Positions 6,618 through 58,728 of a stretch of 64,000 nt of DNA are shown here, one piece after another. The notes under the pieces were generated by a model. The model saw only the letters and a list, made by a program, of their open reading frames with translations. It had not been told where the DNA came from and did not search any database. Position 1 is the first letter of the stretch; every line of letters starts with the position of its first letter. The position numbers and the translations under genes were made by a program. This stretch comes from an uncultured Candidatus Saccharibacteria bacterium (GTDB lineage: Bacteria; Patescibacteriota; CPR2; UBA1875; CAIMLA01): assembly GCA_964511435.1 (NCBI GenBank), contig CAZEFH010000002.1:8416-72415 (forward strand), written 5' to 3'.

Positions 6618-8291
6618 ATGGCAAAAAGTTACTACGACTATTTCGATGAATATATCAAGAAGCGTTCTGGGCTCGGCAGAATGGGATCTTACTATACTGG
6701 CGCTAAGGGTCACAAAAAACTCCATGCAGACCACCCTGAGATAGAGCAGGCCGCACACTCCTGGGCCCTTTCACAAAGTGGCGACATGACAATGTCAAAT
6801 ATGACGGATGAGGAGAGGCTGGAGCAAGAAGCCTGGGACTCCACAAATCCGAATATGGCAGACAACTTTGGTGGCGATGGAGGAGTAGACTTTGGTGATA
6901 CGTTTGGCGGTCTCGCAGACGCCACTGAAGACAATAGTGATCAATCAACGAGTTCCCGCAATCCCAGCGAATACCCAGAGGATGAGGGTCCTACTGGCGA
7001 CGAACCAAAAGACACAGGAGAAGGTGGTGGATCCAGTTCAGAAGACCCTGACTCAGAAGGGGAAGAGAAACCCGAATCAGAAGGTGCTGGTGGAGACGAA
7101 GCCAATGCTGCCAAAGACGCGGCGAAGGCCGGAAAAGGTGAAGCCGCCTCAGGTGCAGCCGAAGCGTCCGCTGGTGCCGCAGAAACTGCAGCTACCGCTG
7201 CCGAGGCTGCTGAAGGTGCTGCGGCGGCCGAGGCAGCCGTTGGTGCCGCCGCTGCCGCAGCGGAGACAGAAGTAGCCACAGCCGCCGCCGCTTCACTCTT
7301 TGCGAACCCTTGGACATATGTGGTCTTGCTTATTCTAGTAATCGTAATTTTTTTCTTATTTCAGACAATTGCTGCGGCATTCCCAAGTGCAGACACAAAA
7401 ACCACTGCTACCAGCGAGGAAATATTAAAGTATTGTACCAAGAACTATGGGAAATACGACTCTCAGACTCAGCTTAAATCTATCTTTGGCTCTACCGAAT
7501 CAGAAGTATCCTCACAGCTCCAAACGATAGATTTTCCTTATCCGAGTGGCAAGATAAGAGTCCACGAAAAGGCCGCTCCTTGCTTTGACGCAGTCGCAAA
7601 AGAACTTGCTAATATTAACTACAAGATAACAGAAACCGGAGGCACCTTTGTCTGGAGAGCAAATGTAAATAACTCTAGCGTCCTCAGTCTCCATTCTTTT
7701 GGAATTGCTACCGACGTCAACCCAGACAAGAATCCAAATGGAGGTGGTAGCCCAGGAAACTGTGAGACTGATATGCCTAAAGAATTTGTTAATGTTTGGA
7801 AAAAGTATGGTTTTAGGTGGGGTGGTAATTATAATTCGACATGTGATGCGATGCACTATGAATGGCTCGGTGGTGCTCCTGGTGTCGCTATACCAGCACT
7901 GGGAGGAAGCGAAAACAAAACGACAGAAACTGACCTTGGGGCAAAAATAGTTGCCTACGCAAAGAAACAAGAGGGGAAACCTTACCTTTGGGGAGCGGCC
8001 GGTCCTGATAGCTTTGATTGCTCTGGACTAGTTCAATATGTTTATAAACATGTTGCAAATATTACATTACCGCACAGCTCTGCTTCACAGTTTACTAGTA
8101 GCAGACTGTCTACCATTAAAAAGGGCAGTGAAAAGCCGGGTGACCTAGTCTTCTTTGGTAGCCCAATCCATCACGTTGGCATCGTTGCTGGAAATGGCAA
8201 GATGTGGGAAGCACCACACACCGGTTCCTTTGTAAAATTGTCTTCATACAAGAATAGATCAGACGTAGCAGGATTTAGGAGGCTAAAATAG
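6618..8291 (+). CDS. Bifunctional peptidoglycan hydrolase: M15-family (VanY-like) metallopeptidase domain plus NlpC/P60 domain, with an acidic Ala/Glu/Gly-rich low-complexity N-terminal region and one TM
   Basis: The M15 motifs are SLHSFGIATD and DAMHYEW. The NlpC/P60 motif has DCSGLVQYVY with HHVGIV downstream. The low-complexity segment lies at about 6900..7300. Confidence 0.7.
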   Translation: MAKSYYDYFDEYIKKRSGLGRMGSYYTGAKGHKKLHADHPEIEQAAHSWALSQSGDMTMSNMTDEERLEQEAWDSTNPNMADNFGGDGGVDFGDTFGGLADATEDNSDQSTSSRNPSEYPEDEGPTGDEPKDTGEGGGSSSEDPDSEGEEKPESEGAGGDEANAAKDAAKAGKGEAASGAAEASAGAAETAATAAEAAEGAAAAEAAVGAAAAAAETEVATAAAASLFANPWTYVVLLILVIVIFFLFQTIAAAFPSADTKTTATSEEILKYCTKNYGKYDSQTQLKSIFGSTESEVSSQLQTIDFPYPSGKIRVHEKAAPCFDAVAKELANINYKITETGGTFVWRANVNNSSVLSLHSFGIATDVNPDKNPNGGGSPGNCETDMPKEFVNVWKKYGFRWGGNYNSTCDAMHYEWLGGAPGVAIPALGGSENKTTETDLGAKIVAYAKKQEGKPYLWGAAGPDSFDCSGLVQYVYKHVANITLPHSSASQFTSSRLSTIKKGSEKPGDLVFFGSPIHHVGIVAGNGKMWEAPHTGSFVKLSSYKNRSDVAGFRRLK

Positions 8292-12054: not shown

Positions 12055-13434
12055 CTATCCATAAAGTCGTTCCCGAATAAGGCCTATTTCATGTCTCAAA
12101 ACCTCATTGTCCTGGATTTCTCTATCAATTTTGTCACATGAATGAATCGCAGTAGTGTGGTCTTTTTTTCCGAGTTCACGAGCAATTTTGGGATATGAGA
12201 GCTGAAGCTCTTCTCGCATTAAATACATTGCGATTTGGCGAGGAAGCACAATCTCTTTATCTCTCTTTGTGCCAAGTATTTCATTTACAGAGAGATCATA
12301 GAAGTTGGCAACCTTTTCCACTATTTGTCTGGCGGTGAAGCCGCGCCTACGGGCATTTGAGATAAGGTTTGAGAGAATTGATTTAGTTACATCCAGGGTT
12401 GGCTGTCCACCATTAAGTTCACAGTATGCCAGGATACGATTAAGAGCCCCTTCAAGTTCACGGATATTATTCTGGATATTACGAGCGATGTAATCAAGAA
12501 CTTCTAAGGGCACAACATAGCCCCGAAGTTGACTTTTGCGCTGCAAGATAGCAATTCTCGTTTCTAGGTCTGGCGGCTGAATGTCTACCATTAAACCCCA
12601 TTCGAAACGAGAACGGAGGCGCTCCTCTAGAGTTGGGATTGCTTTTGGAGGACGGTCGCTCGCGAGAATGATTTGCTTATTTGCTTGATGGAGAGCATTA
12701 AAGGTGTGAAAGAATTCCTCCTGAGTTTGCTCCTTATTAGCGAGGAATTGCAGGTCATCAACAATCAAAACGTCTGCTTTACGATATTTATCTTTAAAAC
12801 CGCCGGTTTTTTTCTCTGTAATCGAAGAAATAAAGTCGTTTGTAAATTTCTCGCTGGTGACATAGACAATGTTTTTCTTAGCGTCTCGGTTACGGATGGC
12901 ATTACCAACCGCTTGCATTAGATGGGTCTTCCCCAGTCCAACTCCGCCATAGATGAAGAGTGGGTTGTATTTTGTTCCTGGATTTTCGGCGACACTCTGA
13001 CAAGCGGCAAACGCAAGCTTGTTTGAAGTTCCGACGACGAAAGTATCTAGGGTATAGCGCGGATTCATCCCGCTAGCAGTACCGCCATCACTACTTACCG
13101 CCGGGGCAGTAGGTTTAATATGAATAGTGTCGTCAGTCGTGACAGCTACTGGTTCTACCTTTTCGTTTAATTTTTCGATAGTTTTTGCTGAGCCAACCCG
13201 ATATTCTATTTTTGAGACTTGGGGCGCAGCATGTTTTATGGCTTCGAGTATCTGGGGGTGATATTTCTTTTCTAGCCACTCTTTAGTGAAAACATTTGGG
13301 ACGCTTACCAGAACAACTTCACCATCAATAGACGCAATCTGAGTGTTTTTGAACCAGGTCGTAAAGTTTGCCTTTGACAGGGAAACTTCGAGTTCACCCA
13401 GAACTGATTTCCAGATTGCATCTTTTTCCATCAT
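12055..13434 (-). CDS. dnaA: Chromosomal replication initiator protein DnaA
   Basis: AAA+ Walker A (GGVGLGKTHL), Walker B (LIVDDLQF) and the C-terminal DnaA-box-binding signature (HTTAIHSCDKI) are present. Confidence 0.95.
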   Translation of the reverse strand: MMEKDAIWKSVLGELEVSLSKANFTTWFKNTQIASIDGEVVLVSVPNVFTKEWLEKKYHPQILEAIKHAAPQVSKIEYRVGSAKTIEKLNEKVEPVAVTTDDTIHIKPTAPAVSSDGGTASGMNPRYTLDTFVVGTSNKLAFAACQSVAENPGTKYNPLFIYGGVGLGKTHLMQAVGNAIRNRDAKKNIVYVTSEKFTNDFISSITEKKTGGFKDKYRKADVLIVDDLQFLANKEQTQEEFFHTFNALHQANKQIILASDRPPKAIPTLEERLRSRFEWGLMVDIQPPDLETRIAILQRKSQLRGYVVPLEVLDYIARNIQNNIRELEGALNRILAYCELNGGQPTLDVTKSILSNLISNARRRGFTARQIVEKVANFYDLSVNEILGTKRDKEIVLPRQIAMYLMREELQLSYPKIARELGKKDHTTAIHSCDKIDREIQDNEVLRHEIGLIRERLYG

Positions 13435-13606
13435 TGCCTCGTGCCGGTTACTTATAGTGCAGTAACGGCTTTATTTGCCCAACATTGCTCAAAACGAGTG
13501 TAAAGTAAGTTCATTATAGTACATAAAAAAGTTTTCCACAACCCCCATATGTTATCCACATTTTGGGGGATAATAAGCACAAAATGATTGAGCAGGGTGG
13601 CGGTCC
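13435..13606. promoter_or_regulatory. dnaA upstream region with DnaA boxes (a second box cluster, autoregulation)
   Basis: TTATCCACA lies at 13552..13560 and TTTTCCACA at 13532..13540. Confidence 0.5.
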
Positions 13607-14488
13607 GTGCTAAGATATAAGCTGCTAAAGATAAGGTATATTATGAGTCTATTTGACACTATTCTAGTTCAGCCCTTCGTAAACATATTGGTATTCTTTT
13701 ATAGCATCATTCCTTTTCATGATTTTGGCCTGGCAATCATCCTTCTTACTGTACTTATCCGAGCAATACTTTGGCCAATTCAAGCAAAGATGATGAAAAA
13801 CCAGAAGGCGCTAAACGAGCTGCAGCCAGAAATAAAGAAGATCTCTGAGAAGTACAAGAATGATCCACAGAAACTTCAGGCGATGACCCTTGAGCTTTAT
13901 AAGGAGAAGGAAGTGAATCCGCTGTCTTCTTGTCTGCCGTCTCTGATACAATTCCCGATTATGATTGCACTTTACTACGCTATCATTAAATTTAGCGAGC
14001 CAGCATTTATCAATCTTGTTAAGAGTGATGCGGGTATTTGGCACTATCTTTATGGCTGGATGCATAACTTAGGCTTCGTGAAAGACGCTCTTAGCGGCAG
14101 TTTCAATACTACTTTCCTTGGCTTCTTTGATCTCGCAAATAAGGCGGTAGTTTCGTTTAGTCCAATCAAGATAAACAAGGAGATTGTCTTTGCCCTTGTT
14201 GCAGCTGGAGCCCAGTATCTACAGATGAAACAAATGATGCCAAAGCAGCAGGACAACAATCAGAGCGCCCAGACACTAGGCATGATGACCATCATGATGC
14301 CACTGATGATTCTTTATATCGGCCTTATCTGGCCAGCCGCTCTGCCACTTTACTGGGCTGTGACCACAGGGGTTGCATATTTGCAGCAGTGGCTTGCGAT
14401 GCGTGGCGATGTCGCTAGTCTCGACAAGGAAGCCATTATTGAAGTCGAGGCAGAGGAAAAGAAAGTTACTCCCAAAAGGAAGAAATAA
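13607..14488 (+). CDS. yidC: Membrane protein insertase YidC/Oxa1 family (short Gram-positive type)
   Basis: Conserved core motifs are present (LTVLIRAILWPI..K, SSCLP.LIQFPIMIALYYAI). The start may instead be the ATG at 13643. Confidence 0.85.
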   Translation: MLRYKLLKIRYIMSLFDTILVQPFVNILVFFYSIIPFHDFGLAIILLTVLIRAILWPIQAKMMKNQKALNELQPEIKKISEKYKNDPQKLQAMTLELYKEKEVNPLSSCLPSLIQFPIMIALYYAIIKFSEPAFINLVKSDAGIWHYLYGWMHNLGFVKDALSGSFNTTFLGFFDLANKAVVSFSPIKINKEIVFALVAAGAQYLQMKQMMPKQQDNNQSAQTLGMMTIMMPLMILYIGLIWPAALPLYWAVTTGVAYLQQWLAMRGDVASLDKEAIIEVEAEEKKVTPKRKK

Positions 14489-14943
14489 TGTCAGTTGGAC
14501 ACGCAGAAATCAAAAAAGTTGAGACCATCGTTGCTGATATGTTGCGCTGGATGCGCGTGTCGCTTTCCCCAAATGTTAGCGCTGATACGGATGGGATAAA
14601 GGTAGATCTTGCAGGGAATGATAGCGCCATAATGATTGGTTTCCATGGAGAGACACTAGCAGACTTTACTTACCTCGTTGGGATTATCGTGAAGAATGAA
14701 CTAGGAGAAAATATCCAAGTTCGTATCGATACGGGAGGCTATTTGGCTGGGCGCGATCGTAGGACCAAAGATCTGGCTAGAAAAGCGATTGAAAAAGTGA
14801 AGACCAGCGGCTTCCCAGAAACAATCACAGGCCTGAATTCATATGAGCGCAGGCTAGTACATGCCGAAGCGAATAAAGAGGGCCTTGTTAGCGAGTCGAC
14901 TGGTACTGGAAGAGACCGCAAGATTGTAATTAAGCCAATCTAA
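14488..14943 (+). CDS. jag: Jag/KhpB-like RNA-binding protein (KH + R3H domains)
   Basis: A C-terminal R3H-like segment (YERRLVHAEA...TGTGRDRKIVIKP) is present. The gene sits directly after yidC. Confidence 0.75.
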   Translation: MSVGHAEIKKVETIVADMLRWMRVSLSPNVSADTDGIKVDLAGNDSAIMIGFHGETLADFTYLVGIIVKNELGENIQVRIDTGGYLAGRDRRTKDLARKAIEKVKTSGFPETITGLNSYERRLVHAEANKEGLVSESTGTGRDRKIVIKPI

Positions 14944-14946
14944 GGC

Positions 14947-16794
14947 TTAGTTATCAAAAAGGTGGTAATACTGCACAATACTATATTTATCTAAAGCCCG
15001 CTTAACGACTTCCTCGGTTCGGTCAATTGCTTTGCCATTTTTGATGCAACCAAAGCTGTTACACGCATCGTAGTATTTCATTTGTCCTTCAAGAAAGGTG
15101 AAATAATTAGTTGACTCAATACCAGCCTTCTTTAGTAGGATTGGTGCTAGAAACGTGTCGTTGATAGTTCCTAGGTTAGTTTCTGTGTTTGAATTGTTGC
15201 TCCAAATAAGAAACGGTACTGAGTGTAGCCTAGTCAAGTCTTTGTCTGATAAATTTATACCACTAATGTATCCCGTTTCTTTATATACCGAGTAGTCGTT
15301 ACCCAATATTGGCAAATGGTCTCCCCAGAAAACTATATAAGTAGGGGTATTAATCTTTGAGAAATAATCCACTAATTTCTTTAATGCTAAATCGGCGTCT
15401 TTTACCCCCTCAGTGTATGTTTCAAGTGCCGCAATCTGCTTGAGGCTAAGAGATGATGAAGTAGCTGATATCTCGACAGCATCATATCTATTTGGGGTGT
15501 AGGAAGGGTGATTCTGCATTGTAACAAGAAAAGAATAAAAAGGCTTTTCTTGTTCCCTATTGTTATACATATCAACTATGTAATCAGTGGCTGCTCTGTC
15601 GGAGACATACCACCCCTTCATATCTTTACCAGAGAATGAGCTAACTGATGCAAATTTATCAAATCCAAGCAGGGGATATATTTTTTCTCTGTTCCAGTAC
15701 CATCCTTCGTAGGGATGAATTGCATAAGTATCATATCCCTGGCTTTTTAATAAGTTTGGTAATGAATTTATTGGCTTTTTAATATACTGCAGGTATGGCG
15801 AAGATGAAAAGGGTAAAAATTGCATAGAATTCCCAGTTAATACCTCAAATTCAGTATTCGCAGTATTCCCACCGAACTGCTCCGTAAGTAAGTTTCCATG
15901 AATGCTTGTTTTCTGTAGTTGATGGAAATTTGCTAAAGGATCCTTCGAGAAAACAACATTAGGTAGTCTAGTGGGGTCCCAGAATGATTCGTCCATGACC
16001 ATGATAATATTTGGCTTCTGAGAAGTTGTCTCGTATTTATTTGATTGATCTTTAAGATAGTCTTTTGCCAGCTCTTTACTGTAGTTTTCAGGTTTTTGAG
16101 GTATGGAATATCTTACTTGTAACAAGAAAGCATTTAGTAGCCCATTTGTAAGGTAATTATTTTTCTCATTAAAAACCATATCGTGAACACCTAGCCTAAC
16201 TTGGTTCTTTTGGTTAAACAGGTAGCCAGGAACAATTAAACAAGATACAAATATTAGAATAACTAGCAAAGAAAAACGGAAATCACGATCAATTTTTAGT
16301 GGCTTGCTTTTGTATAATATAGTTGCGATAAACACGGTGTATAGAAGAAAAATAATTAGTGATATGGATTCGTTAAATGATAGCTGCCCGATAATTTTCA
16401 GCGCCTCTCTACTAATAGTTAAGTCCCATGGCAAAAATGGTTCTCCCCTAAAACTGAGCTTAAAGTAATTCACAAGACTTAGCGACAGCATCAATATATT
16501 TTGTAATAATAGTGCAAACTGCAGGCGTTTTAGAATTAAGAGGAAAATACTCCCGATAAGTAATACTAAAAGAACATTTATAGTAAACAACCACGACTTA
16601 CCGACAACCCATTCAAATGTTAAGAAAAGGGACTTCTCCAGGGCTTCTCGTTGCACATAGGCTGCGAGAGCCGTAATAATTATCGAATTGAACACAAGCA
16701 CTGTAGTCGGATGATTGGAAATAATTCTAGTTACTCCTTCCGACATTGAGATGGCAGTTTTATAAATCTTTTTAATACTATTCATGTTGTACAA
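14947..16794 (-). CDS. LTA synthase-family protein (polytopic N-terminal membrane domain plus extracellular sulfatase/phosphoglycerol-transferase-like domain)
   Basis: About 5 N-terminal TM helices precede a sulfatase-type domain (MVMDESFWDP). The length is 615 aa. Confidence 0.6.
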   Translation of the reverse strand: MYNMNSIKKIYKTAISMSEGVTRIISNHPTTVLVFNSIIITALAAYVQREALEKSLFLTFEWVVGKSWLFTINVLLVLLIGSIFLLILKRLQFALLLQNILMLSLSLVNYFKLSFRGEPFLPWDLTISREALKIIGQLSFNESISLIIFLLYTVFIATILYKSKPLKIDRDFRFSLLVILIFVSCLIVPGYLFNQKNQVRLGVHDMVFNEKNNYLTNGLLNAFLLQVRYSIPQKPENYSKELAKDYLKDQSNKYETTSQKPNIIMVMDESFWDPTRLPNVVFSKDPLANFHQLQKTSIHGNLLTEQFGGNTANTEFEVLTGNSMQFLPFSSSPYLQYIKKPINSLPNLLKSQGYDTYAIHPYEGWYWNREKIYPLLGFDKFASVSSFSGKDMKGWYVSDRAATDYIVDMYNNREQEKPFYSFLVTMQNHPSYTPNRYDAVEISATSSSLSLKQIAALETYTEGVKDADLALKKLVDYFSKINTPTYIVFWGDHLPILGNDYSVYKETGYISGINLSDKDLTRLHSVPFLIWSNNSNTETNLGTINDTFLAPILLKKAGIESTNYFTFLEGQMKYYDACNSFGCIKNGKAIDRTEEVVKRALDKYSIVQYYHLFDN

Positions 16795-39011: not shown

Positions 39012-39767
39012 TTGGAGACAACTATGAAGAATCGTGCCGCTATTATCCTTGCCGCTGGTAAGGGTACTCGAATGAAATCTGATCTCCCCAAGGTGCTGCA
39101 CCAAGTTGGCGGGAAAGCAATGGTCAATCACGTGCTTGAGTCTGCACATGAAGCAAATCTTGCTAAGGTGGTTGTTGTTACTGGTCATATGGCAAAATCG
39201 GTTGAAGATACTCTGTGCAAAGAGGCGACTTGTGTTTTTCAGGACCAGCAGCTTGGTACTGGTCACGCAGTTCTGATTACTGAGAAAAATTTTCCTGACC
39301 CAGAAACATCCGTTGTAGTTCTCTGCGGTGATGCACCACTAGTAAAGGCGGCGACCATTACGAAACTTATGGACTACCATGAATCAGTTGGCGCCGACGC
39401 AACAGTCCTGACAGCAGTTGTTAGCGACCCATTCGGATACGGGAGAATTGTTCGCGACGCTGAGGGGCACCTGGAAAAAATAGTCGAAGAAAAAGATGCC
39501 ACAGATGAAGAAAAGCAGATCAGGGAGATAAACACTGGCACATACTGCTTCCGGTCGGGCGCTCTCTTTGACGCTCTAAAGCAGGTTGGGAACAATAATG
39601 CTCAGGGTGAATATTACCTACCAGACACCCTTGAAATTATTCGTGAGCACGGCGGTACTATCAGGGTAATGAGCGACAGTGATGCCACAGAAGTGCTTGG
39701 CGTAAATACCCTAGAGCAACTTGCGGAAGTTGAGAAAATATATCAAGCCAGAAAGGGGAATAAATAA
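39012..39767 (+). CDS. Sugar-1-phosphate nucleotidyltransferase, GlmU N-terminal-domain-like (no acetyltransferase LbH domain)
   Basis: The N-terminus is AIILAAGKGTRMKSDLPKVLH.VGGK.M. The length is only 251 aa. Confidence 0.55.
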   Translation: METTMKNRAAIILAAGKGTRMKSDLPKVLHQVGGKAMVNHVLESAHEANLAKVVVVTGHMAKSVEDTLCKEATCVFQDQQLGTGHAVLITEKNFPDPETSVVVLCGDAPLVKAATITKLMDYHESVGADATVLTAVVSDPFGYGRIVRDAEGHLEKIVEEKDATDEEKQIREINTGTYCFRSGALFDALKQVGNNNAQGEYYLPDTLEIIREHGGTIRVMSDSDATEVLGVNTLEQLAEVEKIYQARKGNK

Positions 39768-41595: not shown

Positions 41596-41964
41596 CTAGC
41601 TGGACGGAACGAACTCGAGCCTCGCAGCGTAGTCGCGGTTCACGCGGCAGGTGTAGAAGTGCGGTGGAGCAATCGGGTCAGCGTACGCAACCACGACGGC
41701 ACGGCCGTTTTCACGATTGGCTGCGACGAAGGCGAGGTCAAACCTGAATCCGTTGATGCTTTCGCCCTCGAAAGGCCCGCCGAGAAGCCAGCCGTTATCC
41801 CGAAGGACGCACTCCAAATCCTCCAGAGAAGGGCCGTAGGTAGCTGCTTTACGAGTGGCAAACTCGGACGCGAGGTAGGGGTGAGTGTCCTTGGCCACCT
41901 TCTCCCTGTTGATCTCGGTGAGGTCTGTGACAAAGGTAGGCCAACTGTGGATCGATCTCAGCAT
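41596..41964 (-). CDS. Hypothetical protein, third gene of the high-GC three-gene operon. A weak barstar-like pattern (..EFA.....YGPSLEDLECVL) is speculative
   Basis: High GC3 codon usage. A GGAGGTGA Shine-Dalgarno lies 7 nt upstream of the ATG at 41964. The gene lies 15 bp after the previous gene's stop. Confidence 0.5.
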   Translation of the reverse strand: MLRSIHSWPTFVTDLTEINREKVAKDTHPYLASEFATRKAATYGPSLEDLECVLRDNGWLLGGPFEGESINGFRFDLAFVAANRENGRAVVVAYADPIAPPHFYTCRVNRDYAARLEFVPSS

Positions 41965-41979
41965 GTAGGGTCACCTCCG

Positions 41980-42435
41980 CTACTCGCGCTCGGGCAATGC
42001 GCCGGTCATCACCGTGAAGCGCTCGAGGTCGAGAACTTCGGTGATGAGGTCGATTGCCAACAAGATCAGAACCTCATGCAGACCTTCGGTGATGTAGAAC
42101 TCGACGCTACGCAGCTCGCCCCTGAAACCATTTGCCCAAGGGAAGCAGACAGCGATCTCTCCGATGACATCGTTGCCATCCCTCTCCAGGACCTCAATCC
42201 AGGAGACGAGTGCGTACTGGTACCCGTCAGGGCCGTAGACCTTGGCGCGCTGGTGTGTCAGGCGATAGTCGCCTTCCGTAAGGGAAGCGCGACACTTCGC
42301 CATTCCTCGTGACAGGTCGATCCGGTGATCTCCGCCCAGGCTCTTGGCCCAGGCGTCGAGACGGGGATCAACCAGATTCAGCTTGTGGCCAGACTTGATC
42401 TCTCCGTAGGCGAAGACGACATGTGTCTCTTCCAC
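41980..42435 (-). CDS. Hypothetical acidic protein, second gene of the high-GC operon
   Basis: The start is GTG and a GGAGGTG Shine-Dalgarno lies 7 nt upstream. GC3 is high. No recognised domain. Confidence 0.5.
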   Translation of the reverse strand: MEETHVVFAYGEIKSGHKLNLVDPRLDAWAKSLGGDHRIDLSRGMAKCRASLTEGDYRLTHQRAKVYGPDGYQYALVSWIEVLERDGNDVIGEIAVCFPWANGFRGELRSVEFYITEGLHEVLILLAIDLITEVLDLERFTVMTGALPERE

Positions 42436-42448
42436 GATGGTACACCTC

Positions 42449-42640
42449 CTACTTCTTCTTGGGAGTGGGGGCGGCCGACATCGTCGGCAGCACCTTGGTC
42501 TGGGGCGGCTTCGGGTCGGCGTTGAACCGACCTATGATGAGCGAGAAGAGTATGCCGAAGACGATAATGCCACCGATGACAATGGCAAACGCCAGGCGGT
42601 TCAGCTCGCCAACCGTACGTTCCTTATCCAACATATTCAC
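42449..42640 (-). CDS. Small single-pass membrane protein (63 aa), first gene of the high-GC operon
   Basis: One TM helix (LAFAIVIGGIIVFGILFSLIIG) is followed by a Pro/Lys-rich tail. The gene has a GAGAGGGG Shine-Dalgarno and a GTG or ATG start. Confidence 0.45.
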   Translation of the reverse strand: MNMLDKERTVGELNRLAFAIVIGGIIVFGILFSLIIGRFNADPKPPQTKVLPTMSAAPTPKKK

Positions 42641-46974: not shown

Positions 46975-48696
46975 ATGTCGGCACATAACCCTCAGACCCA
47001 AGCAGGAACTGTCGCCCGGGGGCTACTTGCTGCCTGTGGGTTTGCTCTTGGTGGCTATATTACGCTTGTTATCATACAGCCGATGGTTTTTGAGAATCGA
47101 TTTGGCTATGGCAGTGCTATAGCAGGTATTAGTGTTTCTCTGAAGACTGCCAGCGAGGCAGAAGACATCGTCGCCGAAGAGTGGAAAAGATATTCTAAAT
47201 CAGAGGTAGATTTTTCTGGTCAAAGTATACCTGTGACGGCACTGGTGAAGGAAATAGATATTAATCGAACTATCGATGAGGCGTTGGTCGATGAAGAGAG
47301 ACATTACTTCGGACTTTCTAAGTACAGTGGCAAAAGTCATAGTACGAAGCTTGTTTATAATGATGACGAGATCTCGGCGCAGCTATCTCAGCTTTATGAC
47401 GAGGTAGCGACAGTACCTGCAGACGCTGTGATTGCTGACATTGATGCTGGAGTTGTGGAGTCTGAGAAGTCGGGGATACGGCTACTTCTTGCGGAGTCCC
47501 GGATGAATATTTATGACAGCCTCACGCGCTTCGAGAGCATCATCGGTCCTCGTACTGAGCAGTTGGAGCCAGGGTTAACAAAAACGGCGGCAGAGGCGCT
47601 TATTACGAGTGTACGGGCTAGTATTGCCACCCCAGTACAAGTAAAAGGCGATAATTATAGTGAATCGATATCCGCAGCTAGTCTAAAAGAGTGGCTAAAA
47701 TTGTCACCAATCTCATCGCAGACACTAGTAGCGAATGACACGTTACTTCCTGACAACGATGATGACTATTACTATCTCGACCAGGCCAAGCTGTATCAGT
47801 ATGCATCCATGATTGCGGAAAAAGTAAATCAGAAGGCTGCGAATGCTGTTCTAGGGATGAATGGAGGCGCATTAGTAGTGGTCCAGGCTTCGGTGATAGG
47901 ACAGGAACTAAACAAAAATAAACTCATCGCCGATATTGAAGACGCAGTAAAGTCGGATCACTCTGTTAATCTCTCGGTGTCTGTAATACAACCAGAGGTG
48001 ACAGAAAAGAATCTGGGTCAACTAGGAATTACTGAGCTTATCTCTGAGGGGTGGTCGGATGCCGCCGGTTCTCCCGCCAATAGAATCCACAATTTCAAAA
48101 CAGGTACATCAAAGTTCAATGGAGTTCTCATAAAGCCAGATGAAGAGGTTTCGTTCAATAAAATTCTCGGACCAGTCGATGCTAGTACTGGTTATGTTCA
48201 AGAGCTAGTGATTCTGGCTGATAAGACGGTACCTGAGTATGGTGGCGGTCTCTGTCAGGTATCATCGACGGCATTTCGCGCTGCTCTGAATGCAGGACTT
48301 CCTATTCTGGAGCGACACAATCATGCTTATCCGGTCGTTTACTACAGGCCATATGGAGTAGATGCGACCATCTATCTCCCTACTCCTGACCTTAGATTTA
48401 AGAACGATACAGGGCACTACATCTTGATTCAGACAAGCGTGGTTGGTACAAAGGTTTACTTTGACTTCTATGGTACTAAGAAGCCGGGGAAAACGGTTTT
48501 TTCTGGTAGCGCGAGTCCCGTGAATGAAGTTTCTGTGGTAGAGCAGGTTACCCCGACGATTACTGACGTAAATGCAAGGGGTCCGAAGTCATTTACGGCA
48601 ACATTTTATCGTCACATCTATGACGCTGCAGGAAAGCTTACCGATAATGATAAGTTTACTAGTCGGTATGATACACCCGACAAGTACCCGCACTAG
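46975..48696 (+). CDS. VanW-family protein (N-terminal TM, linker domains, C-terminal VanW domain)
   Basis: The VanW core is GTSKFNG......EVSFN...GP....GY.....I....TV.EYGGGLCQVSST.F.AALNAGLPI.ERH.H. Confidence 0.7.
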   Translation: MSAHNPQTQAGTVARGLLAACGFALGGYITLVIIQPMVFENRFGYGSAIAGISVSLKTASEAEDIVAEEWKRYSKSEVDFSGQSIPVTALVKEIDINRTIDEALVDEERHYFGLSKYSGKSHSTKLVYNDDEISAQLSQLYDEVATVPADAVIADIDAGVVESEKSGIRLLLAESRMNIYDSLTRFESIIGPRTEQLEPGLTKTAAEALITSVRASIATPVQVKGDNYSESISAASLKEWLKLSPISSQTLVANDTLLPDNDDDYYYLDQAKLYQYASMIAEKVNQKAANAVLGMNGGALVVVQASVIGQELNKNKLIADIEDAVKSDHSVNLSVSVIQPEVTEKNLGQLGITELISEGWSDAAGSPANRIHNFKTGTSKFNGVLIKPDEEVSFNKILGPVDASTGYVQELVILADKTVPEYGGGLCQVSSTAFRAALNAGLPILERHNHAYPVVYYRPYGVDATIYLPTPDLRFKNDTGHYILIQTSVVGTKVYFDFYGTKKPGKTVFSGSASPVNEVSVVEQVTPTITDVNARGPKSFTATFYRHIYDAAGKLTDNDKFTSRYDTPDKYPH

Positions 48697-48740
48697 ATCA
48701 AATAATAATTAATATGTAATAACTCAAAAAATTTAGACAA

Positions 48741-48781
48741 AAAGCAACGCGCCCTGTTCCCTCGGATGAGGTTACAGGGCG
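48741..48781 (-). terminator. Rho-independent terminator for the high-GC paralogue gene (stem CGCCCTGT/ACAGGGCG with a U-run on the minus strand)
   Basis: An 8-bp stem with a 16-nt loop. The minus-strand RNA continues GCUUUUUGUC. Confidence 0.5.
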
Positions 48782-48801
48782 GTTGTGTTGCATGGAGACA
48801 A

Positions 48802-49263
48802 TCAGTCGCCGGCGATCGGCTCGTAGGGAGGCAAGTTCGCTGACCCAGCGAAGGTGTCCGATACGACGGTCGGGGACCAGTGGTCTTCAGCGATCTTGTG
48901 CCAGTAGATGGCGATGATGCGGATCTTCTCCTCGATGCCGGAATCATGGTCCAGGTAGTCCTGGAGCTTGGTACTGGCGAGAGCGAGGCGGACTCCCTTG
49001 CCATCCTCGCTATCAGGATCTGCGGCGCAGTCCTCGTGGCTGTGCAGCAGCACGAGGCGTGAGCCGTGGCCTCTGATGGAAGTCAGGATCTCCGAGAGGA
49101 GCAGGTCGCGGTGCGGCCCTTCCTCCTCCAGAGTCATGAAGCCACCAGCACGATTTGGAGCGTCGAGGAACTGGATGCGGTGGGCGCTTGCATAGGCGAG
49201 CACGTCTCTGGTGAGACGACCGTCCATACAGCCCACACTTGTTCCGAATACTCTGTTACCCAT
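48802..49263 (-). CDS. High-GC paralogue of the adjacent gene. A small protein with CxDGR...H(x2)C motifs and unknown function; a beta-carbonic-anhydrase-like metal site is speculative
   Basis: VFGTSVGCMDGR...LDAPNRAGG...HSHEDCA aligns with VFGTMLNCMDGR...VDAPNPAGP...VAHQGCA of 49368..49790. GC3 is high. A GAGAGGGG Shine-Dalgarno precedes the ATG at 49263. Confidence 0.5.
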   Translation of the reverse strand: MGNRVFGTSVGCMDGRLTRDVLAYASAHRIQFLDAPNRAGGFMTLEEEGPHRDLLLSEILTSIRGHGSRLVLLHSHEDCAADPDSEDGKGVRLALASTKLQDYLDHDSGIEEKIRIIAIYWHKIAEDHWSPTVVSDTFAGSANLPPYEPIAGD

Positions 49264-49319
49264 CTGTACCCCTCTCACAGTAGCCGATAATGTGCAACAC
49301 GAAGCAAATTATACACTGA

Positions 49320-49352
49320 AAATAAAAAAAGTCCAGCCTATTGTGGCTGGAC
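49320..49352 (-). terminator. Rho-independent terminator of the native paralogue (GTCCAGCC, loop TATTGT, GGCTGGAC, then U7 on the minus strand)
   Basis: A perfect 8-bp stem followed by a run of T on the transcribed strand. Confidence 0.7.
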
Positions 49353-49367
49353 GAAAGCAAAATATTA

Positions 49368-49790
49368 TTATTCGGTGACCTTGTTCACAAGGTGATTTAC
49401 TTCCCAGTCAAGATCAGTAATCTTAGTGAGCCAGAGACCATCGACGGTAATCCCAGCGGGGAGGCCCCACTTGGTAGCAACAATTTCGACAGCTTCCTTT
49501 AGTTCTGTCAGTTGTTCCTCGTCAGAAATCGGGTTCTTGGCGCACCCTTGATGTGCCACAATAGAGAGCTTGGTCGAGTGATGACCATTGATCGAAATCA
49601 TTGTTTCGGCTTTATAGTGATCGATGATGGTTTTGTCACCTTTTACGATCATGTTTGTAGGGCCAGCTGGATTTGGTGCATCGACTACATCTAGTTTATA
49701 CTGTTCCTTCATCCACTTAACAACGGCATTTTGAGTGCGGCCATCCATACAGTTAAGCATAGTACCGAAAACAGTTGCGGTATCTGACAT
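49368..49790 (-). CDS. Native AT-rich paralogue: a small protein with CxDGR...HxxC motifs (function unknown)
   Basis: An AAAGGAGAGAT Shine-Dalgarno precedes the ATG at 49790. The ORF track extends the frame to 49916, but that extension overlaps atpC. Confidence 0.5.
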   Translation of the reverse strand: MSDTATVFGTMLNCMDGRTQNAVVKWMKEQYKLDVVDAPNPAGPTNMIVKGDKTIIDHYKAETMISINGHHSTKLSIVAHQGCAKNPISDEEQLTELKEAVEIVATKWGLPAGITVDGLWLTKITDLDWEVNHLVNKVTE

Positions 49791-49803
49791 ATCTCTCCTT
49801 TTG

Positions 49804-50258
49804 TTACTGGTTAAGTTTTTCTGGCTTGTGTTGATGTTTTGAGTGTAGGGAAGAATGACGCCCAAGTGAACGTAGCTGTGTAGTGATGCGCGCAAGTTCG
49901 GCTTCTGATACAGCAATCAGCTCTTTGTTATCCTTGGCGGTGTCTAGTGCCTTTTCAGCACGCTCCTTTGCCTTCATAATCTCAGTTTGATTGAGCTCGT
50001 GTAGGTGATCAGCACTATCTGCGAGAATCATTACTTCACCATTTTCTTTTACGTAGACAAAACCACCATAGACGAGGGCTACTTTACTTTTGCCCGCAGT
50101 CTTTACGATGATGTCACCGTGAGTCAGCTCTGCCACAAGAGGCATGTGGTGGGGTAGAATTGCAATCTGGCCAGTGACCGTAGGTAGCACTACCTCTTCG
50201 ACTTCTTCGTCGAGAAGAGTGCGTTCTGGTGATACAACTCTAAGGTGAAGTTTGGACA

Positions 50259-50259
<1 letters not shown>
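49804..50259 (-). CDS. atpC: F1Fo ATP synthase epsilon subunit
   Basis: The sequence pattern is L.VVSPE......EV..V.LPT..G..GILP.H.P... Confidence 0.85.
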
Positions 50260-56584: not shown

Positions 56585-56707
56585 TTGCGAGTTGAAAACA
56601 ATAAGCAGTTAACAATAAACAAACATCAATGGGAACTGTTAATTGATTTCTGGTACCTGAAATTTGATTATATTCCCGGGTAGCTCAGCGGTAGAGCAGT
56701 TGGCTGT

Positions 56708-57226
56708 GTATACTAGTAACTTTTGTAGCTTGTAATAAACTGGAAGTATGGGCGACAAAAGAAAATATGCAGACCGTCGTGAATACTTGATAGCGGCAGT
56801 GTCTAAAAGAAGAAAACTTCTGCGGGCAAAGGCTATTGAATACAAAGGCGGAAAGTGTAGTATATGTGGCTACCACAAATGCGCAAATGCTCTTGATTTT
56901 CATCATTTATCAGGAAAAGACTTCAGTCTTTCCGCTGATGGAATGACGAGATCATGGGACAGAACAAGAACGGAGCTAGATAAGTGTATTCTAGTTTGCG
57001 CAAATTGCCACAGAGAAATCCATTCGCAGCTTCAGTCGGAAACGGTTGAATGAAAACTGGGTGAATTGCGGGAAACCCTAACGTTAAGTCGAGGGCAATC
57101 CGCAGCCAATCCTCATAATGAGGCAGGTTCAGAGACTAGGTGATTACACCCTAGAGCGCCCAGCACCTAAGGCATTAGCTATGGTGATGAGATAGTCCAC
57201 GCCTTGTAGAAATACTTGGATTAGTG
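56708..57226 (+). mobile_element. Group I intron (IC3-like, resembling the Azoarcus/cyanobacterial tRNA introns) carrying an HNH endonuclease ORF
   Basis: The 5' exon ends in U and the intron ends in G. The 3' core contains AATTGCGGGAAACCC, GTTCAGAGACTAG, CACCTAAGGCA and GCTATGG. These closely resemble conserved P3-P7-P9 elements of the Azoarcus tRNA-Ile intron. Confidence 0.7.
56748..57053 (+). CDS. HNH homing endonuclease encoded within the intron
   Basis: The zinc-finger and HNH motifs are CSICGYHKC...DFHHL and CANCHREIH. The length is 101 aa. Confidence 0.7.
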   Translation: MGDKRKYADRREYLIAAVSKRRKLLRAKAIEYKGGKCSICGYHKCANALDFHHLSGKDFSLSADGMTRSWDRTRTELDKCILVCANCHREIHSQLQSETVE

Positions 57227-57349
57227 TAACCAATTGGTCGTCGGTTCGAATCCGACCCCGGGAGCCAAATAAGAAGAGGCTTAATAAAGCCTTTTTTTGA
57301 TACCTATTTTCCTTAACCCCTATCGGACTTAGAACTTTTGAGTTAAAAT

Positions 57350-58179: not shown

Positions 58180-58728
58180 ATGACTACGACTGAAAGTACG
58201 GGGATAGTCCTGTCGGAAGAGGAGATGAATCTCAAGGATATCGCCTGGAGAGCCTTCGGGAGACGGCAGAAGATGCCGTTCGATGATCTGGCTCGCGCGA
58301 TGACTCGGGCATCCTGGGCGAGAATCCTCATTCGTCTCGGTGTGGTCGTTGTGGACGAGGCGGAGCCTGGCATTGTTCGCAAGACGAAGCTCCCTGTCAG
58401 GCTGAAGGAGCGTCCGGTAATTCGTGGAAGCGAATTCGGGGATGTTCCCCAGTCGGTGACCAGACAGCGTGAAACCATGGAGGTGATGCGAGATCGAATT
58501 GCAAGTCTGAGTGAACGAGAGCGACAGATACTGGATGCCTGCGCTTTCAGTGTTGACTGGGCTAGTACCAGTCATGTCTACCGTATCAAACTCGTCGAAG
58601 TCAAGCGTCGTACAGGCTGTAAGACTTCAGATATCGCTGCACTGATGAAGAAGATCGGAATCCCGACGAGCGGAAACAAGGGACTTACCTGGGTCCTGCC
58701 GTCTTGGTTCCGTGGCGCTTTGCTCTAA
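58180..58728 (+). CDS. Hypothetical protein encoded in the third high-GC patch
   Basis: GC3 is high. A GAAGGGGGA Shine-Dalgarno lies 6 nt upstream of the ATG at 58180. The ORF track extends the frame to 58123. No recognised domain; an ERERQIL segment is only vaguely HTH-like. Confidence 0.45.
   Translation: MTTTESTGIVLSEEEMNLKDIAWRAFGRRQKMPFDDLARAMTRASWARILIRLGVVVVDEAEPGIVRKTKLPVRLKERPVIRGSEFGDVPQSVTRQRETMEVMRDRIASLSERERQILDACAFSVDWASTSHVYRIKLVEVKRRTGCKTSDIAALMKKIGIPTSGNKGLTWVLPSWFRGALL

Follow-up and report, generated by a model that had tools for sequence, protein, structure and literature searches.

A GC-enriched, variable paralogue of a conserved Pro_CA_2 gene in a slot after the ATP synthase operon of Patescibacteria

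Genes whose base composition departs sharply from that of their neighbours raise the question of where they came from and what keeps them different. The window analysed here, a 64,000-nucleotide (nt) stretch of contig CAZEFH010000002.1 (positions 8,416 to 72,415) from an uncultured Candidatus Saccharibacteria bacterium, poses this question directly after the ATP synthase (atp) operon, where two small genes of the Pfam family Pro_CA_2 stand in tandem on the minus strand. Gene A (49368..49790) encodes a conserved protein of 140 amino acids (aa) and has a G+C content (GC) of 0.454, with a GC at third codon positions (GC3) of 0.47; gene B (48802..49263) encodes a hypervariable paralogue of 153 aa and has a GC of 0.608 and a GC3 of 0.74. 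The original prediction for this locus was that the two are tandem paralogues of opposite composition and that B is a recent arrival from a high-GC donor. The analysis bears out the first of these statements and leads us away from the second: on balance we favour the reading that B is an ancient, exchangeable, hypervariable and GC-enriched paralogue of A in a slot after the atp operon that is conserved clade-wide, this slot being, to judge from its sequence signals, separately transcribed within a conserved non-coding frame.

The high GC of B exceeds what its protein sequence requires. The whole window has a GC of 0.425, and the 50 window ORFs (open reading frames) that served as a reference set have a GC3 of 0.40±0.07, with a maximum of 0.58. 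With the residues of B re-encoded in the codon usage of the window, the expected GC3 is 0.39±0.04 against the observed 0.74 (z = 8.8), so that protein composition, an explanation that the original prediction had itself raised, is ruled out as the cause of the difference. GC at the first and second codon positions and the Arg/Lys ratio of B are raised too, and all three codon positions are GC-enriched in every type of B described below, which indicates a region-level directional pressure that goes beyond codon choice. At third codon positions both A and T are depleted; adenine-specific mutagenesis is ruled out as the source of the bias, T being depleted likewise. The GC-rich stretch ends sharply at the B transcription unit, with 60-nt windows on either side falling to 0.23-0.45.

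Is this a peculiarity of one genome? The pair stands behind atpC (49804..50259, minus strand), an ORF for the ATP synthase epsilon subunit and the last gene of the atp operon, which forms the conserved upstream backbone of A and B; the Pfam domain PF02823 (ATP-synt_DE_N) is found in the relatives' gene syntenic with it. Gene A has 16 homologues (57-76% identity), and it was through these that the contigs of relatives were fetched. The resulting Patescibacteria slot set comprises 11 lineages, the window's included; atpC and A are visibly upstream in 10 of them, and the contig of L024 starts inside the slot gene. In 11 of 11 lineages the slot holds a second Pro_CA_2 gene that is GC-enriched relative to its neighbours. 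The window's B, at 153 aa, has a GC3 of 0.74 against 0.42 for its neighbours, and the corresponding values are 152 aa, 0.77 and 0.53 in L004; 184 aa, 0.52 and 0.33 in L005; 162 aa, 0.72 and 0.43 in L007; 144 aa, 0.945 and 0.41 in L010, where B sits in a contig of 43% GC; 188 aa, 0.73 and 0.50 in L013; 200 aa, 0.79 and 0.38 in L016; 142 aa, 0.79 and 0.40 in L017; 151 aa, 0.68 and 0.28 in L018; 167 aa, 0.71 and 0.40 in L021; and at least 128 aa, 0.90 and 0.36 in L024. The GC3 of B thus exceeds that of its neighbours by 0.35 on average (range 0.19 to 0.54). Two more distant lineages, L006 and L020, have gene A only. The downstream boundary of the slot is, in the window, a VanW-like/PG_binding_4 gene convergent with B (46975..48696, plus strand; PF04294, E 6e-42), and relatives differ in their downstream gene order. 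As an observation in its own right, an AT-rich (GC 0.31) GIY-YIG gene of 81 aa lies between A and B in L010 (5517..5762, minus strand) and also in L011 and L012; in L010 it stands beside the most GC-extreme B of all (GC3 0.945) and may provoke local double-strand breaks and their repair.

A and B are members of one family. In a pairwise alignment (BLASTP) they are 33% identical over 94 aa (E 2e-14), the shared VFGT, CMDGR, DAPN.AG and HxxC motifs noticed in the original prediction lying opposite each other, and both clear the 30-bit gathering threshold of PF20393 (Pro_CA_2, 'putative carbonic anhydrase'), A with 112.9 bits (E 1.5e-32) and B with 49.1 bits (E 8.2e-13). The distance from the Cys of CxDxR to the His of HxxC, put by that prediction at about 65 residues, is 66 residues in A and 64 in B. 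The putative zinc-site residues are C14, D16, R18, H80 and C83 in A and C12, D14, R16, H76 and C79 in B; across 14 A and B sequences these five positions (Cys, Asp and Arg in CxDxR, His and Cys in HxxC) are the sole invariant columns, and they would reproduce the Cys-His-Cys ligand pattern and the Asp-Arg dyad of beta-class carbonic anhydrases. AlphaFold2 models (predicted local distance difference test 89.6 for A and 88.1 for B) have an alternating beta/alpha topology in common, and for both models the best Foldseek matches in the PDB are beta-carbonic anhydrases: 1g5c (Cab), 6y04, 6jqc and 2a5v, with probability 1.0, E between 1e-4 and 4e-5 and template-modelling (TM) scores of about 0.5-0.6, a moderate rather than a close resemblance. 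The best match of the gene A model is 1g5c (E 1e-4). The likeness of the motif to a beta-carbonic anhydrase zinc site, suspected from the outset, is thus borne out by family profile and by fold.

The relationship is nevertheless a distant one. Neither protein matches PF00484 (Pro_CA), even at E up to 10, and a profile of the A family against PDB sequences gave weak matches only (3las, E 0.39; 1g5c, E 1.2), at the HxxC region. Compared with the Cab-type enzymes (PDB 1G5C, 3LAS; PF00484), A and B share the Cys-His-Cys pattern, the Asp-Arg dyad and the alpha/beta fold, but they are shorter by ~25-30 residues, their TM score is only ~0.5 and the sequence similarity is insignificant (E 0.4-1.2). 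Profile scores and models together therefore place A and B in Pro_CA_2, as what appear to be distant, minimal relatives of the beta-carbonic anhydrases. Within PF20393 the two have the family's length (~125-150 aa) and its CxDxR...HxxC motif, but B is an extreme outlier whose best non-self match (35% identity) reaches E 4e-8. A search of the full-text literature turned up no papers on 'PF20393' and, under 'Pro_CA_2', only unrelated lanthipeptide (ProcA2) matches; no characterised family member was found there. Single polypeptides with two fused Pro_CA_2 domains exist elsewhere: P0029 is intact at both sites, and the first domain of P0026 is without the second zinc-binding Cys (HEDT). Such fused proteins, like two-domain beta-carbonic anhydrases, resemble the locus in placing two family domains side by side; A and B differ from them in being encoded apart, each gene having its own promoter and terminator, and in that one of the two is hypervariable. 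Analogy with the fused proteins suggests that an A-B heterodimer is possible. The combination of a conserved A with a hypervariable, GC-rich B after the atp operon did not come up in our searches and is not known to us from elsewhere.

How variable is B? Between lineages A proteins are 57-86% identical, whereas comparisons of B with B mostly score below 40 bits. At least seven types of B can be told apart: the window's own; L004 with L017 (35% identity); L005 with L013 (39%); L007; L010/L012 with L024 (78%); L016; and L018 with L021 (54%). Since invariance is confined to the five metal-site residues (Cys, Asp, Arg, His, Cys), purifying selection on every B appears to act at that site and hardly anywhere besides. 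Nor does the distribution of the types track the atp backbone: L004 and L021 have AtpD proteins that are 95% identical and different B types, as do L007 and L010 (AtpD 89% identical). Gene A of L007 matches its L004 counterpart at 86% identity, yet the AtpC and AtpD of L007 are nearest to those of L010 (82% and 89%), which suggests a recombination breakpoint between atpC and A. At the strain level, L021 and L023 have 0 differences in the 3.4 kb from atpG to atpC and 16 over the next 1.27 kb, a stretch that starts in the 3' end of A and runs into the 5' part of VanW; of these 16, five lie within 60 nt of B, and differences also reach DUF3006 and VanW. Taken together, the incongruent types and the L021/L023 differences indicate recombination or exchange downstream of atpC, and because the types do not follow the atp backbone, lateral exchange of B inside the gene pool of the clade seems likely.

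The GC enrichment of B has outlasted most of the synonymous signal. L012 and L024 share a B type (78% protein identity), and their adjoining radical-SAM gene is 65% identical; at fourfold sites the residual identity above the expectation from composition is 0.24 for B and 0.21 for the radical-SAM gene, equal enough to indicate that the two genes have diverged together, by co-inheritance. About four-fifths of the synonymous signal has been lost over this distance, and both B genes still have a GC3 of 0.90-0.945. In the remaining same-type pairs synonymous sites are saturated in A and B alike. Amelioration theory holds that the GC3 of an imported gene should relax to the resident value over such distances; its failure to do so despite saturation or near-saturation places B at a different, maintained equilibrium and argues against a recent import that has yet to ameliorate. 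The amelioration model is said to go back to the work of Lawrence and Ochman on horizontally acquired islands of atypical GC. B resembles such islands in its sharp GC and codon deviation, its orphan-like character and its incongruent distribution, and differs from them in that its deviation is clade-wide, occupies a fixed slot between conserved regulatory flanks and survives saturation or near-saturation of synonymous sites.

Nor does B have a recognizable donor. A word-indexed search with B returned B itself only, as a singleton cluster, and phmmer, run exhaustively against 1.84 billion cluster representatives, gave 46 weak matches, the best at E 4e-8 and 35% identity, among them relatives of gene A itself; no B relative above about 40% identity is present among these representatives. 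A profile built from nine B sequences retrieved only other slot genes. In the literature on Saccharibacteria, GC islands and horizontal transfer we found nothing specific to this locus.

In place of a donor, the sequences around B reveal a shared non-coding frame. Each of the two genes has its own ribosome-binding site and terminator, as the original prediction had proposed. The Shine-Dalgarno sequence of A, AAAGGAGAGAT, lies directly 5' of the gene at about 49791..49801, and A is followed by a predicted intrinsic terminator (49321..49352, minus strand; GTCCAGCC..GGCTGGAC, then seven T) whose stem (49331..49352) folds at -16.3 kcal/mol (z -4.4). The 3' arm of this terminator, TGGACT (49330..49335), doubles as the -35-like hexamer of a candidate B promoter, the -10 box of which, TATAAT (49308..49313, minus strand), stands 16 nt past TGGACT in the context (A)GTGTATAAT. 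The arrangement GTCCAGC..GCTGGAC plus T run is kept upstream of B in 9 lineages, and (A)GT(G/A)TATAAT in 9 of 10; a promoter scan of B gave 10/12 matches, so that promoter function is predicted. Some 7 nt past the -10 box comes a leader motif, CGTGTTGCAC (49292..49301, minus strand), at what would be the 5' end of the B mRNA; across lineages it reads TGTGTTGC, with the variants GTTGTTGC and GTTGTCGC. The G-rich Shine-Dalgarno sequence of B, GAGAGGGG (49269..49276, minus strand), is kept upstream of B in all lineages with data.

At the other end, B is followed by a trailer and terminator (48738..48791, minus strand) in the form of a compound hairpin and a T run. The hairpin (about 48741..48791; -28.7 kcal/mol, z -5.2) consists of an outer helix GCAAC/GTTGC, an internal loop, an inner helix GCCCTGT/ACAGGGC and a variable apical part. 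An alignment of trailers from 10 lineages has the consensus GCAACACAACCGCCCCG..loop..CGGGGCGCGTTGC, and RNAalifold supports the outer and the inner helix, with compensatory changes present. In the window this GCAAC..GTTGC trailer-type site occurs once, and Rfam searches with leader and trailer produced no credible match, although E values up to 10 were admitted. A phage source for the trailer was considered and rejected, the 17 exact viral matches to a 17-mer of it being chance matches, mostly to one unrelated phage gene family, without the hairpin.

The two ends of the transcript may also pair with each other. Two alternative partners are available to the trailer's 5' arm, GCAACAC (48785..48791): the 3' arm of the trailer and the 5' leader of the mRNA, the leader sequence (G/T)TGT(T/C)GC being complementary to GC(A/G)ACA(C/A) in the 3' untranslated region (UTR). 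When leader and trailer of eight lineages are aligned by hand, 90% of cells pair and double compensatory changes occur in three pairs; this alignment scores 0.242 for covariation, a value that shuffles (0.113) exceed in 1 of 500 cases, and slid controls collapse. For predicted whole transcripts (525-712 nt), the 5'-3' pairing probability is at least 0.9 in 7 of 10 lineages, the window's B included, and among random window segments (n = 60) it averages 0.21, peaks at 0.84 and never reaches 0.9. In L004 an additional GC-rich, acidic ORF of 39 codons with an AAGGAGG Shine-Dalgarno sequence (7064..7183, plus strand) lies between B and the trailer, so that the leader-trailer bracket can enclose more than one ORF.

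How might an ancient, exchangeable B come to look like this? We picture three steps. B would first be a functional zinc protein that probably acts with A, for example as a heterodimer, joint action being plausible because fused two-domain family members exist. Its alleles would then be swapped between lineages by recombination through the conserved flanks. Lastly, and this is the weakest step, the GC enrichment would be a by-product of a locus-specific directional force, for which we tentatively favour recombination-associated, GC-biased conversion. The likeness to bacterial GC-biased conversion lies in its link between recombination and GC3, the B region being incongruent and carrying clustered strain-level differences.

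Several considerations weigh against this account. The effects that Lassalle et al. (2015) reportedly found for bacterial GC-biased gene conversion are small and genome-wide, amounting to a few GC3 points, whereas the excess at B is 19-54 GC3 points within a single transcription unit of ~0.5 kb, and replacement of whole alleles between unalignable types would leave no heteroduplex on which biased repair could act. Zinc binding and CO2 hydration in Pro_CA_2 are predictions from sequence and models, and a heterodimer is hard to square with a conserved A and a hypervariable B surface. The incongruence of the types could also stem from differential sorting of ancient paralogues. The background of end pairing is substantial, at a mean of 0.21 for random segments and 0.51 when the 5' decamer alone is shuffled, and the 5' end of the B mRNA is placed from the -10 box. 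Finally, the lineages are few, and several are short metagenomic contigs.

B does not stand alone in the window as a GC-rich gene. Patch 1 (41596..42640, minus strand) adjoins rnpA-yidD and holds three ORFs, for a membrane peptide of 63 aa and proteins of 151 and 122 aa (GC3 0.72-0.79), behind a leader with its own TATAAT promoter (TATAAT-ATATC-GTGTTCTGC) and the Shine-Dalgarno sequence GAGAGGGG; it is syntenic in the relative L002 (959..1595, minus strand), where it is GC-rich too and its protein only 31% identical. Patch 3 (58180..58728, plus strand) encodes an orphan of 182 aa (GC 0.55, GC3 0.60), has the Shine-Dalgarno sequence GAAGGGGGA and a GC-rich terminator of its own, and lies between a hemerythrin gene and lepA; no gene is called there in L002. 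Pfam gave no matches for the proteins of either patch. A bracket of the B type was looked for around both and rejected: only the leader of patch 1 is similar, and both are without the GCAAC..GTTGC trailer. L002 (JTS-AC303) has a further GC-rich block (13316..16182, minus strand; GC 0.56-0.65) just before its hemerythrin gene, with proteins of 184 and 725 aa that have no Pfam match, and GC-rich orphan blocks seem to be general in this clade. The original prediction had traced the patches to a common donor on the strength of their G-rich Shine-Dalgarno style; the same style precedes genes of ordinary GC, at 39767 in the window and at a possible upstream start of A in L010. With patch 1 itself syntenic, GC-rich and divergent in L002, the common donor falls away, and instead of imports from a single source the high-GC patches look like one class of genes that are conserved in the clade, rich in GC and quick to diverge.

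A bolder form of the favoured reading, which we regard as doubtful, is that a transcript-delimited, locus-specific process keeps this one gene hypervariable and GC-enriched (to a GC3 of 0.945) in Patescibacteria of 38-51% GC; such a process would probably extend to the other GC-rich orphan patches. If it exists, it would amount to an extreme hotspot of GC-biased conversion, to RNA-mediated diversification or to codons matched to a high-GC host, in which last case a closed-loop mRNA would be expressed in that host; the conserved bracket of 5' leader and 3' trailer would then be part of the mechanism.

Among the other explanations, selection on the transcript and codons of B accounts for a good deal and is, in our estimation, still unlikely. 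It would make B a GC-rich, structured, 5'-3'-closed mRNA, selected either for resistance to AU-specific RNases and a long half-life or for codons that match those of a high-GC host, with the hypervariability of the protein reflecting an arms race. The coincidence of the GC-rich stretch with the predicted transcription unit, the very stable predicted folds (-237 kcal/mol for 563 nt), the 5'-3' closure conserved with covariation, the joint depletion of A and T at third positions, as in genes of high-GC organisms, and the fast-evolving, orphan nature of the other GC-rich patches all fit this idea. It has more difficulty with the amino acids, which are shifted too (first and second codon positions, Arg over Lys) and point to a directional pressure that is not purely synonymous; a GC3 of 0.945 would moreover demand unusually strong selection per synonymous site, and for the host-codon variant we know of no precedent in which the mRNA of an epibiont is translated in its host.

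The frame around B also invites comparison with integron cassettes. Under site-specific cassette exchange, the segment from the (G)TTGC core of the leader to the trailer would be an integron-type cassette carrying an attC-like site; a GC-rich pool would supply such cassettes, and they would be inserted immediately 3' of a resident promoter. Direct core repeats do bracket the Shine-Dalgarno sequence and coding sequence, an inverse core GCAAC and an imperfect compound hairpin lie at the 3' end, variable cargo of atypical GC sits within a conserved frame, the bracket of L004 holds an extra small ORF, and the type distribution is incongruent with the backbone. We nevertheless think this distinctly improbable. 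The immediate neighbours (the atp operon and A on one side, VanW on the other) include no recombinase gene, the screen for one having covered these neighbours and not the remainder of the window; the cargo is always of one protein family, unlike that of integron cassettes; and the 64 kb window has a single site, hence a single slot. In integrons the GTT/AAC triplets of the R''/R' boxes of attC are invariant, whereas L010, L016 and L024 have GTC/GAC at the core triplets, the kind of compensatory change that is typical of a structural helix, so that the core co-varies like RNA. The trailer also falls short of the usual attC range in length, and its spacer geometry differs from that of attC sites.

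What, then, of the recent import with which we began, a B acquired from a high-GC donor that also supplied the other patches of the window? Its atypical GC and GC3, its Arg-rich, Lys-poor composition like that of genes from high-GC organisms, its status as a database singleton and the G-rich Shine-Dalgarno sequence common to the three patches are all as this idea would have them. We hold it to be very unlikely. The GC-enriched tandem recurs in 10 related lineages, the slot gene being present in L024 as well, and a GC-rich Pro_CA_2 gene occupies the same slot with conserved promoter, leader and trailer (terminator) across the 11-lineage set; high GC3 persists past or near synonymous saturation; relatives above about 40% identity are missing from the 1.84 billion representatives; the G-rich Shine-Dalgarno sequence is not exclusive to GC-rich genes; and the synteny of a GC-rich, divergent patch 1 in L002 means that it, too, is no recent import into this genome. 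Of the lateral origin proposed for B, therefore, one part stands and one does not: exchange within the clade is likely, given types that are incongruent with atp, and import from a recent high-GC donor is not.

Targeted hypermutation through an RNA or error-prone intermediate, for example self-templated retrohoming like that of diversity-generating retroelements with GC-ward errors over the whole transcript, we consider highly improbable. Hypervariability and GC enrichment are bounded by the ends of the transcript, and strain-level single-nucleotide polymorphisms cluster in B. Retrons and diversity-generating retroelements have priming structures, which the ends of B resemble in being paired and in carrying a hairpin, and Patescibacteria are rich in diversity-generating retroelements. 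A target of such an element was rejected for B, however, in that the 64 kb window has no template-repeat-like second copy of any part of it; among the neighbours of the locus a reverse transcriptase gene was not noticed, the depletion at third positions is not adenine-specific, T being depleted too, and divergence within same-type pairs proceeds at an ordinary pace (B 78% against 65% for the neighbouring gene; B 54% against A 56%). The L021/L023 polymorphisms reach DUF3006 and VanW, which fits recombination tracts better. An assembly or binning artefact, by which a high-GC fragment was joined chimerically into a low-GC contig, might be suspected from the abrupt change of GC in a metagenome-assembled genome, but it can be dismissed with near certainty, since a Logan contig from run ERR3839025, an independent assembly, matches 47791..50219 of the window at 100% identity across both GC junctions, and at least 10 other lineages, whose samples and assemblers are unrelated, have the same architecture.

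Elsewhere in the window, a group I intron of ~519 nt (Rfam RF00028, 85.6 bits, 56968..57219) interrupts the anticodon loop of a tRNA gene (56674..57267, plus strand). Joining 56674..56705 to 57225..57267 at the putative splice junction yields a 75-nt tRNA-Thr(UGU), which ARAGORN misses in the unspliced sequence. The intron carries an ORF of 101 aa (56748..57053) with weak similarity to HNH and Zn-ribbon domains, probably a homing endonuclease.

What does the B locus mean for the biology of these bacteria? Local GC deviation is routinely taken as a sign of recent horizontal transfer, and this locus is a case where that reading fails. A gene of ~0.5 kb with a GC3 of 0.7-0.95 in AT-leaning genomes needs a local force, be it biased conversion, selection or mutation, and the locus is thus a compact natural test case for the determinants of bacterial GC content. 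The predicted long-range pairing between 5' and 3' UTRs offers a regulatory feature that can be tested, in organisms about whose RNA biology very little has been learnt. Lastly, an uncharacterised pair of genes like beta-carbonic anhydrases is tied to the ATP synthase operon of Patescibacteria, the one conserved and the other variable save for its metal site, and the variability of B outside that site hints at a function under diversifying pressure.

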